DNA of 54,970 nucleotides, filler included, from an uncultured virus (IMG/VR IMGVR_UViG_2049941000_000201) (Duplodnaviria > Heunggongvirae > Uroviricota > Caudoviricetes). It is 8 parts of one record of this genome, joined end to end, with 100 filler letters (N's around TTAATTAATTAA, not from the genome) between each part and the next. Parts side by side here need not be neighbours in the genome. Positions count along the whole stretch, not along the records: positions 33,390 to 38,710 come from IMGVR_UViG_2049941000_000201; 7 more parts are not named here. One strand, 5' to 3'. Shown piece after piece: positions 33,543 through 37,563 of the stretch. Position numbers and translations under genes: made by a program. The first letter of the stretch is position 1. Every line of letters begins with the position of its first letter. A model generated the notes under the pieces. It was given only the letters and a program-made list of their open reading frames with translations. It did not search any database and was not told the origin of the DNA.

Positions 33543-34034
33543 ATGGCTACAGACCTTCTAAAGTGCTTCAGGACTTTTCGCGACGATCCGCGGAAAGTCT
33601 CTTTTTCATTGTCTTGCGGCAAGGATTCCGCCGTAATGCTCGACTTGGCATCGAAGTTCCTGGACCTGTCGAAGCACAGGTTCTTTTACATGAGCTTCTA
33701 TCATGAGGTGCTTCCGTACAAAAGAAAGTATCTTTGCGCTCTCGAACGTAAGTACGGCATCACAATCGACATTCACGAAAACCCCGTAAGGTACGGGCTC
33801 AAGCAGTCCGAGCTGTTCCGCAAGATCATGGAGCAGGACGGTACGCAGCTAATCGGCATCGGTTACAAGATTTACGACTCGCTCCAGCGCAGAGCAATTC
33901 TGAAGGGTTCAGAGGAAAACGGCATCGCCATTAATTTCCCGTTCTTCGCTCCGCTTAGGGACTGGAAGAACAGGCAGGTCATGGCTTACGCCAAATCACA
34001 CAGGCTCGCACTGTCGCCAGAATACTCTTTCGAT
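33543..34034 (+). CDS. PAPS-reductase-family (PP-loop) protein
   Basis: SLSCGKDS PP-loop, G.K..DS..RR and PL.DW....V..Y motifs. Confidence 0.85.
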
Positions 34035-34045
34035 NNNNNNNNNNC

Positions 34046-34630
34046 ATGCTGCCAGTTTCCGAGGTTCGACCCTACGAAAAGAACCCGCGAAAAAACGCCG
34101 AGGCGGTAAAATATGTCAAGGCGTCCATCGAAAAATTCGGATTCAAGCAGCCTATCATCGTAGATTCCAACCGCGTCATTATTGCCGGTCATACACGACT
34201 GGAAGCGGCGAAGTCTCTCGGCATGGCGGAAGTCCCCTGCATCGTGGCCGACGATCTCACCGACGCCCAGGCGAAGGCGCTGCGTCTCGCGGACAACAAG
34301 GTCGCCGAGTTTTCCGAGTGGGATATGAACCTGCTCGGCGGCGAGCTGGGCGAGCTTGCTGAGATTTCCGACATCGACATGGGAGATTTCGGTTTCGAGG
34401 ATGACGGCATCAGCGCCGACGACTTCGGCGACGAATTCAGTCTCCCCGATGGCGAGAAAAGCAACATTACCCAATGGACGCTCACTTTTGCTGAAGAGCA
34501 GAAGGCCTTTATCGAAAATGCCCTGAAGGAAGTGGGCGAGCCGGAGGAAACTTTCGGGAACGTGAACGAAAGCGGGAACAAGATTTACGAGGTGGTGCGT
34601 CAATGGGTCGAGCAAAAGAAATCGAACTGA
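34046..34630 (+). CDS. ParB/Srx N-terminal domain protein (true N-terminus seen in variant 37781-37935)
   Basis: PYEKNPRKN, SI.KFGF.QPIIVD, IIAGHTRLEAA and LRLADNK motifs. Confidence 0.93.
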   Translation: MLPVSEVRPYEKNPRKNAEAVKYVKASIEKFGFKQPIIVDSNRVIIAGHTRLEAAKSLGMAEVPCIVADDLTDAQAKALRLADNKVAEFSEWDMNLLGGELGELAEISDIDMGDFGFEDDGISADDFGDEFSLPDGEKSNITQWTLTFAEEQKAFIENALKEVGEPEETFGNVNESGNKIYEVVRQWVEQKKSN

Positions 34631-35313
34631 AGGTCATCCCGTCCTCGATAGCGAACCCGTTTATCAAGGCGCACCATTATTCGGGCAAGGTAGTGAACAA
34701 CTCCTGCCTGCATTTCGGCGCGTTCCTGGATGGCGGCCTGCACGGCGTTATGAGCTACGGACCGAGCCTCGACAAGCGGAAAATCATGGGCCTCGTCGAA
34801 GGCACCGGCTGGAACGAGTTTCTGGAATTAAACCGCATGGCTTTTGACGAATACCTCCCGCGCAATAGCGAGAGCCGCTGCATCGGTCAAAGCATCCGGC
34901 TTATCAAGAAAAGGGCTCCGCAGATCAAGTGGATAATTTCATTTGCGGACGGCTGCTCCTGCGGCGACGGCACGATTTACCGCGCCTCTAATTTCGTTTT
35001 GACCGACATCAAGGAAAACAGCGAGCTCTGCGAATTGCCGAACGGCGAGAAGGTGCACTGCATGACCTTGAAGTCGAACCCCCTTACTCCCAGGAAGGAT
35101 CTGGGGGGGGGTACGTTCTTCTCGGTGACCGGCGGGACGTACAATTTCAAGAAATACGTGGAAAAAGCGGGCGGGAAAATCCTCACGGGCTATCAAATGA
35201 GGTATATTTACTTCATCGACCCGGCCTACAAGTCCAGACTAAAAGTTCCTATTATTCCGTTCTCTCGAATAAATGAAATCGGGGCAGGTATGTACAAGGG
35301 TGAAAAACGATAA
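34603..35313 (+). CDS. mom: Mom-family GNAT DNA-modification enzyme
   Basis: HHYSGK, ELNRM, NSESRCI, IISFAD and GTIY.ASNF motifs typical of Mom-like proteins. Confidence 0.8.
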   Translation: MGRAKEIELKVIPSSIANPFIKAHHYSGKVVNNSCLHFGAFLDGGLHGVMSYGPSLDKRKIMGLVEGTGWNEFLELNRMAFDEYLPRNSESRCIGQSIRLIKKRAPQIKWIISFADGCSCGDGTIYRASNFVLTDIKENSELCELPNGEKVHCMTLKSNPLTPRKDLGGGTFFSVTGGTYNFKKYVEKAGGKILTGYQMRYIYFIDPAYKSRLKVPIIPFSRINEIGAGMYKGEKR

Positions 35314-35322
35314 ACTTTTTTA

Positions 35323-35393
35323 GCGTGAGTAGTTCAAGCTAGAACGCGCAGCATTCCTGCTGCGAGATGTTGGTGCAAGTCCGGCTTCACGCT
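35323..35393 (+). tRNA. Atypical tRNA-Gly-like gene (TCC), probably non-proteinogenic
   Basis: Cloverleaf: acceptor GCGTGAG/TTCACGC, D arm GTTC/GAAC, anticodon arm CGCAGC-ATTCCT-GCTGCG, T arm GTTGG-TGCAAGT-CCGGC, discriminator T. Confidence 0.8.
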
Positions 35394-35421
35394 CTAATTT
35401 GTTTTCGCTGGAGAACGGAAT

Positions 35422-36421
35422 ATGGCTAAAGCAAAATACGACGGCAGAAAAAACCTCATACCGGTGCACGACCACGAAACGGCGGTCATGCTCGGCAAGC
35501 GCAGTGCCGAAGCCAGAAGGGAAAAGAAGAACCAGAAGGCGATGCTCCTGGAGGACATCAAGAATACCGTCACCGAGCGCATCAAGGTTCCCGAACCGCT
35601 ATACCAGNNNNNNNNNNNNNNNNNNNNNNNNNNNNNNNNNNNNNNNNNNNNNNNNNNNNNNNNNNNNNNNNNNNNNNNNNNNNNNNNNNNNNNNNNNNNN
35701 NNNNNNNNNNNNNNNNNNNNNNNNNNNNNNNNNNNNNNNNNNNNNNNNNNNNNNNNNNNNNNNNNNNNNNNNNNNNNNNNNNNNNNNNNCCGTCGTTGAC
35801 GAATTTTCGTGGGGGTGGGGGGCGTTTTTAGACGATTTCCAAAAGGACATCCCGTTCGAGGAAATCTCAAAGACGCTTTATGCCGTTGGTATGGGCTCGG
35901 TGCCTTCCTGGGTGCGGCCTTTTCACGTTCTTTCAAATGGCGAGAAAATGCGCGTCACCTTGGCGCGTGGCTTGCTAGAAAGAGACTTCTTTATTTTCGA
36001 CGAGTTTACGTCCGTTGTGGATCGTCAAGTCGCCAAAGTCTAAATGCCCATNNNNNNNNNNACGCTCAAGGGCCTCGGCATCAAGATAACCCGCCTCGAA
36101 AGGGTTGACAAGCTCATCTTCTACCGCGCCCTCCTGAAGGCGCTCAAGGACGGCGAGCCCGACCGCCTGCTCAAGATCGCGGAGTTTGCGGGCATGAAGT
36201 TCCGCGACGATGACGATGGCTCCGCAACATCAATGACGCCGGACACAGAAATGATGCTGTCCACGATCTTTGCACAGGGTCGCAAGGTCGAACCGAAGCA
36301 GCCTAAATCGAATGCGGTCGATAAAGCGGACGGCGGAAGTTCCGCAAGCAATGAATCGGCAAATGACGATGGCGCTGTTCATTCGGAGCCTGCCATAACC
36401 GTTTTTTCCGGGCTGGGGTAA
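35422..36421 (+). CDS. Putative terminase small subunit (fragments 35422-35607 and 36062-36421; variant 36945-37130)
   Basis: NLIP..E.A...G.RS..ARR N-terminus. The C-terminal piece directly precedes terL. Confidence 0.65.
35790..36043 (+). CDS. Phage ABC-type ATPase fragment (displaced; likely partner of the GNAT at 37141-37563)
   Basis: VPSW.RPF.VLSNGEK.R..LAR signature and FDEFTSVVDR Walker B. Confidence 0.85.
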
Positions 36422-36424
36422 ACG

Positions 36425-36933
36425 ATGGCTTTTGTATGGACTCCGGATTTGCTTTGCAGGGTGCGCGACTATCCGCACCTTTTGGGCCACATGGTCGGAA
36501 AGACCAAGTTGACCGAACTGCACAGCGACTGGATCAAGCTCGTATGGGACACCCAACCCGGAAAGCACTTCTCGCTCATGTCTCACCGTGGCGCCTACAA
36601 GACTACGGCGATAACGGAGATGGGCATTATTTACCATCTGCTATTCCATCCGTCGGACCGTATAGCGCTTATCCGTGAGACCTACACCGAGGCGGCAAAG
36701 ACGCTCGACACGATTAAGAAGTACATGGAAAGCCCGGCGCTAAAGAGCCTTTTCGCATTCGCCCACCACAAGGAGCCTTTCGCGGTGCGTTCGCCCGAAG
36801 GTTCCGTACTTTACTCGTTCAAGAGGACGGTGACGAAGGAGAACAGCATCGACGCCTACGGAATCAACCAGGTTCCGACAGGATCGCACTACGACCGCAT
36901 ACTTTGTGACGACATTGTTACGATAAATTCCCG
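36425..36933 (+). CDS. terL: Terminase large subunit, N-terminal ATPase part
   Basis: HRGAYKTT Walker A and ILCDDI Walker B. Confidence 0.88.
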
Positions 36934-37140
36934 NNNNNNNNNNCAACTGAAGGGCCTCGGCATCAAGATAACCCGCCTCGAAAGGGTCGACAAGCTCATC
37001 TTCTACCGCGCCCTCCTGAAGGCGCTCAAGGACGGCGAGCCCGACCGTCTTTTGAAGATTGCGGAATTTGCCGGCATGAAGTTCACGGAAGAAGAGACGA
37101 ACGCTTCCGCAATGACGCCGGACACAGAAANNNNNNNNNN

Positions 37141-37563
37141 CGGAATTGATTAAACTCTTGCTAAAGTTTTTTAATGTCGTTACAATTCTAAAATCGTAAC
37201 CTTCTTTCTTGTAAAGTTCGGCAACGGCGGTAAGGAACTTGACGCCAAGGCCTATTCCCTGGTAGTCCGGCAAGATAACAAGACGAGAGCAACGCCTCAT
37301 GTTTTTAACTTTCGGATGCGGAAACGGCATGACCGCGCAAAAACCGACTATTTTATTTTGTTCGTCATACAGCCCATAGCATTTACACGCAGACGCAATA
37401 TCGTTATTCAAATAGTGATAACGGCTAAATTTTGTCCATTCTTCGCGCCCGCACTTTCTAACAAAGAAGTCTGTTTTTGGGTGCGGGCCAATGGAAAATT
37501 TTGCTTGTAATCGTCCGTGCAAAAAGTGAAATCCGGTTCTAGCCATTCTACCACGTCCTTATG
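37141..37563 (-). CDS. ABC-ATPase C-terminus and GNAT acetyltransferase joined by a -1 frameshift
   Basis: Frame 0: HKDVVEWLEPDF. Frame -1: W..F.RYHYL and SRLVILPDYQGIGLG (acetyl-CoA-binding motif). Confidence 0.8.

Follow-up and report, generated by a model that had tools for sequence, protein, structure and literature searches.

The DNA analysed here (the window, 54,970 nt in all, filler included) is joined from 8 parts of the genome record of an uncultured virus of the class Caudoviricetes, IMGVR_UViG_2049941000_000201, and this report concerns one short segment of it, in which a tRNA-Gly-like RNA directly follows a gene of the mom DNA-modification family. The interval 34046-35608, which is free of N, carries three open reading frames (ORFs) and this one RNA, as read from the sequence (Table 1). 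The RNA folds as a cloverleaf, its stems covary and its acceptor-end nucleotides are conserved among relatives, and its family is linked to Mom in the genomes in both directions; we propose that it probably serves Mom as a private source of activated glycine. The initial annotation had given the gene order as parB, mom, RNA and terS. The first three hold, and 'terS' can be assigned by position only: neither the ORF after the RNA nor its full 176-aa homologue in the near-identical contig L001 has a match in Pfam or PHROG, and in L001 the homologue is followed by terL (phrog_38) and portal (phrog_146) genes.

Table 1. Features of the mom-RNA locus, in positions of the window
Feature	Position	Strand	Evidence and remarks
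ParB N-terminal-domain (ParB-like nuclease) ORF	34046..34630	+	PF02195 E 1.1e-9; phrog_620 E 1.2e-51
mom, Mom-family GNAT, 236 aa	34603..35313	+	PF25680 E 1.6e-49; phrog_1384 E 6.1e-46; stop TAA 35311-35313
Spacer from mom stop to G1 of the RNA, 9 nt	35314..35322	+	ACTTTTTTA; read directly
tRNA-Gly-like RNA, 71 nt, G1 to U73	35323..35393	+	ARAGORN, Rfam, family model R1, minimum-energy fold
Acceptor stem	35323-35329 with 35386-35392	+	GCGTGAG/TTCACGC: G1:C72, C2:G71, G3:C70
D arm	35332-35345	+	D loop AAGCTA, without GG
Anticodon-arm equivalent	35347..35364	+	6-bp stem CGCAGC/GCTGCG closes loop ATTCCT
T arm	35369-35385	+	GTTGG-TGCAAGT-CCGGC; G at 55; U50:G64 and U51:G63 wobbles
Discriminator T (U73)	35393	+	read directly
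CTA at the usual CCA position	35394..35396	+	read directly
Start of ORF at small-terminase position, interrupted by N run	35422..35608	+	position only

The locus and its RNA

The ORF preceding the RNA is a member of the Mom family, as initially annotated. Besides its match to phrog_1384, it scores 168.8 bits with PF25680 (cut-off 27.1), residues 7-221 covering profile positions 2-201 of 202, and it matches the structure of Mu Mom (8bv8) with an E-value of 1.9e-23. In the 8bv8 alignment the Mu residues H58, Y59, R111, S124, D149 and Y159 correspond to H25, Y26, R78, S91, D116 and Y126 of the window protein and are conserved (these equivalences use an offset of +9 from the chain numbering, which we set ourselves). 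The window Mom is presumed to be a Gly-tRNA-dependent modifier of N6-adenine in DNA. The end of the ParB ORF overlaps the mom start by 28 nt, and the ParB-mom order recurs in L001, in Psychrobacter phage Y8A and in Microbacterium phage Warren, making ParB a conserved neighbour.

The cloverleaf starting 9 nt past the mom stop, with its elements for glycyl-tRNA synthetase (GlyRS), D loop, T arm, anticodon loop and CTA, is present as it had been described. A low-scoring or pseudo-Gly call had been expected of tRNA finders, and an odd call is what ARAGORN gives: 'tRNA-???' with a two-base anticodon, its sole tRNA call in the window. With the Rfam tRNA model RF00005 the RNA reaches 38.2 bits, above the gathering score of 29 (E 9e-7 with 321 nt searched; model positions 1-71 of 71). 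The family model R1, described below, gives 67.1 bits (E 6.5e-15), the window sequence itself being in its seed alignment. The cloverleaf is also the minimum-energy fold (-27.9 kcal/mol), an energy that is unremarkable by itself (z = -2.09; 9 of 200 shuffles fold equally well); what lifts the RNA beyond chance is its conservation and covariation next to mom in relatives.

All nucleotides of the bacterial tRNAGly identity set are found in the window RNA, namely U73, G1:C72, C2:G71, G3:C70 and the loop CC, which we assume to correspond to C35 and C36. Features expected of a translation-competent elongator tRNA are missing: the loop AUUCCU (35353-35358) is closed by C:G and has A33 and U37, there is no G18G19, and position 55 is G. 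This loop counts 6 nt, or 8 nt when the stem is held to 5 bp. A natural compensating variant, 35350 A>C with 35361 T>G, keeps the pair in L001 and in contigs of two RNA libraries. According to the sequencing runs, the phage occurs in ruminant gut samples.

Linkage between the RNA and Mom

We collected the best 80 of 201 confirmed IMG/VR relatives of the window Mom, with 59-99% identity (the Mom-seeded set); this collection put no constraint on RNA sequence. From 39 distinct RNA copies, aligned as A1, a covariance model (R1) was built, and its matches were counted at E <= 2e-3. R1 finds the RNA in 64 of the 80 loci, and every family match lies on the strand of mom, the copy in L012 being degenerate. 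The RNA usually starts 6-75 nt past the mom stop; it lies about 500 nt from mom where an opposite-strand ORF intervenes, and upstream of mom in three loci. At loci with tandem mom duplicates (L012, L019, L025, L026, L028, L068 and L070) the RNA follows the second copy. The type of RNA seen in the window occurs in seven IMG/VR contigs, all Mom-seeded, and in each of them 12-17 nt separate the end of the Mom match from the RNA. The RNA is also carried by 32 of 51 prophage or genome Mom loci, whose hosts are mostly metagenome-assembled genomes (MAGs) of gut Clostridia/Bacillota, together with Bradyrhizobium isolates. The conserved, covarying cloverleaf predicted to stand beside related mom genes is thus found both in viruses and in prophages or genomes. 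Nucleotide identities of mom and RNA compared among the closest relatives were uninformative, because these genomes are mosaic.

ARAGORN calls a tRNA beside mom in 29 of the 80 loci and misses many of the look-alikes. Sixteen of its calls are tRNA-Gly (14 TCC, four of them with two tandem copies, and 2 GCC), the other 13 are 'tRNA-???' with two-base anticodons, and across all 80 loci it reports a single unrelated tRNA (Gln). With family RNAs called in 29 of the 64 R1-positive loci, there is a gap in annotation, tRNA finders missing or mislabelling this family.

The link was also followed from the RNA. A motif consisting only of the T arm, the 3' strand of the acceptor and CCA occurs in at least 120 stretches of viral sequence; 80 of them form the RNA-seeded set. 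A Mom ORF recognized by our local Mom hidden Markov model stands beside the RNA in 72 of these 80 loci, and 73 of the 74 Mom ORFs, belonging to 71 loci, are PF25680 members according to Pfam. RNA and mom are co-oriented in 71 of the 72, with the RNA 3' of mom in 43 loci and just upstream of it in 29. Among the eight misses, the RNA lies no more than 75 nt from the contig end on the mom side in five, with terminase genes coming next, as they do in the window; one further locus has just 256 nt on the mom side, which leaves two true exceptions, L090 and L095, the former with a different GNAT adjoining the RNA. A blastn search with a family member against GenBank phages returned only generic similarity to annotated tRNA-Val genes.

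The called mom ORF extends through the entire RNA in 32 of the 43 cases on the 3' side (RNA-seeded loci L084-L163). At such read-through loci the C-terminal tail of Mom and the RNA would share DNA, and excision of the RNA would deprive the mom message of its stop codon.

Among cultured phages, 189 GenBank records have a Mom-like match, all less than 60% identical to the window Mom, and nine of them were inspected. Psychrobacter phage vB_PmaS_Y8A (OQ059336), whose Mom is 47.5% identical, has the ParB-mom-terS order of the window and two tandem D-armless RNAs directly after mom (L081, 3162-3226 and 3234-3299; E 3e-7 and 6e-7), both unannotated and both invisible to ARAGORN. Y8A would offer a tractable experimental system. 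In Microbacterium phage Warren (MK737944) a tRNA-Gly(CCC) whose anticodon loop is an ordinary one of 7 nt is annotated (L082, 3175-3249) 33 nt after a ParB/Mom-like pair and on the opposite strand, which hints that ordinary tRNA-Gly genes too may be recruited next to Mom. The pairing of RNA and Mom characterises much of the Mom family without being universal there.

Covariation and conserved nucleotides in the RNA family

Members of the family range from near-complete cloverleaves to D-armless minis of 64-67 nt. In alignment A2, 95.8% of cells are paired (75.2% when shuffled) with a covariation of 0.575 (0.187), in A3 97.9% (69.7%) with 0.675 (0.155), and none of 500 shuffles reaches either; both alignments were fitted to the model and hence are biased toward the structure, the counts of compensatory changes being large nonetheless. 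When the alignments are slid as a control, just 33-49% of cells pair.

In the Mom-seeded set the pair 1:72 is GC in 45 of 45, 2:71 is CG in 46 of 46 and U73 is invariant, while 3:70 is GC in 36, GU in 7 and AU in 3 rows, the last being three weak non-family matches. Pairs 4-7 show free compensated variation, with as many as five types of pair at each. Bacterial glycine identity resides in U73, G1-C72, C2-G71, C35 and C36 according to passages of Giege and Eriani 2023 (PMC9976931), and the invariant nucleotides of the family, as read from the alignments, match this set. Positions 32 and 38, which would flank the loop, form a covarying Watson-Crick pair (CG 40 and UA 4 in A2; six pair types in A3).

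Of 121 distinct sequences, 112 could be parsed; the nine others include four weak non-family matches, one truncated and one degenerate copy. The parse held the stem to 5 bp and required the loop CC, which is accordingly present in 112 of 112. A loop of canonical format (7 nt, U33, NCC, R37) occurs in 13 of the 112, all 13 with complementary 32/38, and in none of the 40 Mom-seeded members; in the remaining members the loop measures 3-10 nt or, where it has 7 nt, carries A33 or a pyrimidine in position 37, and position 34 varies. The D arm is absent in 22 of 112. In 35 of the 40 Mom-seeded members the T stem has an extra base in its 3' strand at 63-65, and the window type, one of the five without it, has U50:G64 and U51:G63 instead.

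Staphylococcal non-proteogenic tRNAGly carries GUGC in the T arm. The initial annotation had likened the window RNA to it on account of a missing D-loop GG together with GUGC; this signature stands for the window RNA and fails as a mark of the family. A D-loop GG goes with T55 in 41 of 43 members, and absence of GG or of the D arm goes with another base at 55 (mostly G) in 62 of 69, so that 62 of 112 members lack both. 'No GG plus GUGC' thus describes an elbow-less class that includes the window RNA; what holds across the family is the acceptor-end nucleotides and the CC in a closed anticodon loop, with an irregular T stem in 35 of the 40 Mom-seeded members.

As a control for host sequences we took a Limiplasma MAG, a Lachnospiraceae MAG and Bradyrhizobium valentinum, each carrying a prophage copy. 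R1 matches the tRNA-Gly genes of these genomes as well, and in all 10 of the 10 the loop is ordinary (CUUCCAA, UUCCCAA or UUGCCAA) and the T stem a regular one of 5 bp; the three prophage elements in the same genomes have closed loops and an extra T-stem base.

Some side observations concern this family. G3:U70 together with U73 occurs in 10 of 112 members, for example in the L039 and L057 types. G3:U70 is the identity pair of alanyl-tRNA synthetase and a determinant for the D-aminoacyl-tRNA deacylase DTD; such variants may be charged with alanine, or edited, and a change in charging might lead to another adduct. The same phages have a second unusual sequence of tRNA shape (L062:526-594, L078:1839-1907 and L079:1156-1224), with the acceptor GCAGACG/CGTCTGC, A or G at 73 and an 'anticodon' loop of about 10 nt; it matches R1 weakly and ARAGORN is silent on it. 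At locus L274 (G006:C37:59260-59331) ARAGORN calls a tRNA-Gly(GCC) with G33 and C73, 1.7 kb from a prophage family RNA, which may be another non-standard glycine-type RNA of the same prophage.

Neighbouring genes and composition of the window

Directly upstream of ParB and mom lies a PAPS-reductase-like (DndC-like PP-loop) ORF (33543-34033, + strand; PF01507 E 3.8e-8), another gene of DNA-modification type in the same block as mom. Past the RNA the window is not colinear with its relatives, since their post-RNA ORF runs directly into terL and portal: the first 62 codons of the next ORF are followed, at 35609-36062, by a 181-nt N run and then by an ABC-ATPase-like fragment (PF00005, weak), and a GNAT lies at 36740-37546 on the minus strand (Acetyltransf_1 E 1.3e-8). 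Iyer et al. 2021 predicted, in passages of PMC7824862, that an ABC-ATPase and GNAT pair acylates a DNA base, and the two ORFs of the window recall that pair. Coding stretches are duplicated in the window, namely the ParB N-terminus MLPVSEVRPYEKNPRK (34046 versus about 37840) and TLKGLGIKITRLERVDK (36063 versus about 36950); ten-N gaps separate the duplicated pieces, which gives the appearance of a strain-variant assembly or a scrambled scaffold.

A proposed role as glycyl donor

Silva et al. (Nat Commun 2026, PMC13219725) show that Mu Mom takes glycine from Gly-tRNAGly and attaches it to adenine N6 in dsDNA, which confirms for Mu the donor that the initial annotation had named. The glycyl adduct then rearranges to the carbamoylmethyl form (PMC13219725; bioRxiv 10.1101/2023.03.24.534169). 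All three E. coli tRNAGly isoacceptors serve as donors and Gly-tRNAAla does not, and this use of Gly-tRNAGly, published 2023-2026, is framed there as harvesting of a host resource (PMC13219725). A term search of the main text of that paper finds 'tRNA gene' only for E. coli constructs and nothing on a phage-encoded tRNA, and our literature search found no paper linking mom genes with a phage-encoded tRNA-like RNA. The Mom enzyme family is thus known and its chemistry presumably so, and the partner RNA, its family and their linkage to Mom are new as far as this search shows.

We favour the reading that the window RNA is a dedicated, non-decoding glycyl donor for Mom, to which we assign a probability of about two in three. 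From the observations above we infer its transcription, processing and charging, its avoidance of EF-Tu and the ribosome, and its preferential use by Mom. The RNA would be transcribed together with the late mom and packaging genes, a placement made because it has no promoter or terminator of its own (a scan for sigma-70-type consensus only found none between mom and the RNA and none near the RNA). Host tRNA-processing enzymes would excise it, its 3' end would be trimmed and the CCA-adding enzyme of the host would put on CCA, after which host GlyRS would glycylate it by way of G1:C72, C2:G71, U73 and the loop CC. With its anticodon loop closed and of the wrong size it could not decode. The first three T-stem pairs determine EF-Tu affinity (PMC7826273), and because these are irregular here and the elbow between D loop and T loop is lost, the RNA would probably bind EF-Tu poorly. 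Its glycine would then be kept from translation and reserved for Mom, which would hand it to N6-adenine of the phage dsDNA; the adduct would rearrange to the carbamoylmethyl form and block restriction.

Extended to the family, the proposal is that phages evolved 'non-ribosomal' tRNA-Gly mimics, charged by GlyRS, unusable by EF-Tu and the ribosome, and dedicated to Mom as a glycine cofactor. We regard this broader statement as probable too, if with a little less confidence. If true, a non-proteinogenic tRNA would for the first time be known from a virus, and an RNA cofactor would for the first time be known to serve a DNA-modifying enzyme alone. EF-Tu-free Gly-tRNAGly would be a limiting resource for DNA hypermodification, and a phage with its own donor would not compete with EF-Tu for a scarce pool while thousands of adenines are modified just before packaging. 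The family would also form a natural series revealing the minimal needs of GlyRS and Mom, an acceptor/T helix and a CC loop, and would provide a ready-made orthogonal carrier for enzymatic DNA modification.

Several points weigh against the proposed donor role. The first concerns necessity. Mu Mom accepts all three host isoacceptors, so that a private donor is chemically unneeded (PMC13219725). Sixteen of the 80 Mom relatives are without the RNA, 3 of these loci being too short to tell; nine of the 16 form a clade of 75-78% identity in which another ORF directly follows mom, and two phage records of the RNA-less clade, 97-98% complete, have no RNA copy anywhere. Seven of the nine inspected GenBank phages with distant Mom genes likewise have no such RNA nearby. 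The initial reading of the RNA as a private glycyl donor is supported by the linkage, the structure and the identity nucleotides, and the RNA is not obligatory for Mom. The second concerns the enzyme: the essential R151 of Mu Mom corresponds to Cys118 in the window protein, and Cys is clade-wide (SFAD[GA][CT][SQ]CGDG), with or without the RNA; a search among relatives for a Mom residue that tracks RNA presence found none.

The others concern the RNA and the evidence itself. The motif behind the RNA-seeded set was built from Mom-adjacent elements and tests only this RNA family. Contigs of four RNA-library runs span mom, the RNA and the next ORF, and such contigs cannot show transcription, ends or CCA addition. 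The argument for EF-Tu avoidance, which we infer from the T stem and elbow, is qualitative, and that GlyRS reads CC in a loop of 4-6 nt is assumed. Finally, the window RNA has CTA in place of an encoded CCA; among 39 distinct Mom-seeded elements CCA is encoded in 34 and CTA in 5. CCA is likewise not encoded in the tRNA-Gly genes of the Lachnospiraceae host (G007); such a host has to supply it post-transcriptionally, and this makes the CTA a lesser obstacle.

Alternative explanations

The RNA could instead be an uncharged cis-acting element of the mom/packaging transcript, such as an RNase P/Z site, a stabiliser or a regulator of mom. It abuts mom, it is co-oriented with it in 71 of 72 RNA-seeded loci and at all family matches of the Mom-seeded set, and the scan for a promoter or terminator of its own was negative; the mom ORFs running through the RNA in 32 of 43 3'-side cases also speak for such an element, since excision would there cut the mom message. 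We nevertheless consider it unlikely, since a tRNA shape would suffice for processing and the retention of GlyRS nucleotides while other acceptor pairs covary is left unexplained, as are the CCA encoded by 34 of 39 elements and the exclusive pairing with an enzyme that consumes Gly-tRNAGly.

Less probable again is a decoy or regulator of tRNAGly-binding proteins, be it a sponge for host GNAT toxins that acetylate Gly-tRNAGly, an inhibitor holding Mom back until late in infection, or, in uncharged form, an inducer of host GlyRS through a T-box. U73 and G71 also make up the recognition code of the GNAT toxin TacT (passages of PMC9976931), and the RNA keeps its acceptor end while losing decoding features. 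An anti-toxin role, however, gives no reason for adjacency to mom in 72 of 80 RNA-seeded loci, a closed loop of 4-6 nt is a poor anticodon for a T-box specifier, and none of the proposed partners is found in the neighbourhood.

An ordinary phage tRNA-Gly, decoding GGN or replacing a cleaved host tRNA, from which Mom merely benefits, appears a shade more doubtful still. The Rfam threshold is passed, 13 of 112 members have a loop of canonical format, and Warren's tRNA-Gly(CCC), with its ordinary 7-nt loop, adjoins a Mom-like gene. Against this, the window RNA has A33, U37, a 6- or 8-nt loop closed by the covarying pair 32:38, no G18G19 and G55, and the family has loops of 3-10 nt, a free position 34 and D-armless members, and is almost never found away from Mom. 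Taking the 8-nt loop as that of a +1 frameshift suppressor was tried and rejected in view of A33, U37, the covarying loop closure and family loops of 3-10 nt.

It is common for phages to integrate into a tRNA gene and to take a part of it along. That the RNA is the remnant or copy of a host tRNA-Gly gene retained as an attachment site is scarcely credible even though relatives occur as prophages, and the attP reading was rejected, because the element is full length, lies between mom and packaging genes (none of the neighbours that were checked is annotated as, or matches, an integrase), shows wide compensated divergence whereas an att core must match the host, and is unlike the tRNA-Gly genes of its hosts.

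Comparison with known systems

The locus can be set beside several known systems. GNAT toxins of the TacT type share the GNAT fold and select tRNAGly by U73 and G71, that is, at the acceptor end where nucleotides of the present family are invariant; they acetylate the tRNA-bound amino acid and so block translation, whereas Mom transfers glycine to DNA, and the locus has no toxin gene. Ordinary phage tRNAs, as in T4-like phages and actinobacteriophage clusters, are likewise phage-borne and tRNA-shaped, and some members of the Mom-linked family, as well as Warren's tRNA-Gly(CCC), look usable in translation; ordinary phage tRNAs differ in having canonical loops, in serving many amino acids and in having no single enzyme partner, whereas the Mom-linked family is of glycine type only.

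The closest enzyme is Mu Mom, likewise of the PF25680 family; in the 8bv8 alignment the window protein has equivalents of six of the seven residues shown to matter in Mu, and its glycyl transfer chemistry is presumably the same. The two differ in that Mu encodes no donor and scavenges host isoacceptors, whereas phages of the window clade mostly encode a look-alike beside mom, and in the replacement of R151 by Cys in this clade.

The closest RNAs are the non-proteogenic tRNAGly NP1-3 of Staphylococcus aureus and S. epidermidis, donors for FmhB/FemA/FemB. These evade EF-Tu through weak T-stem pairs and loss of G18G19 (passages of PMC4052509), in agreement with the missing D-loop GG that the initial annotation had ascribed to them. 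In NP1-3, as is proposed for the phage RNA, GlyRS identity is kept and the tRNA is diverted from translation to a transferase of the GNAT fold (Fem); G18G19 is lost and the first three T-stem pairs are weak, and the window RNA for its part has no GG and irregular 50:64 and 51:63 pairs. NP1-3 differ in being cellular, in having a normal 7-nt UCC loop and cloverleaf and in feeding peptidoglycan synthesis, whereas in the viral RNAs loops are closed or of the wrong size, the T stem often has an additional base or the D arm is missing, and the genetic link is to an enzyme that modifies DNA. If the proposed role is correct, viruses have independently reached the staphylococcal split of the tRNA pool between translation and a transferase.

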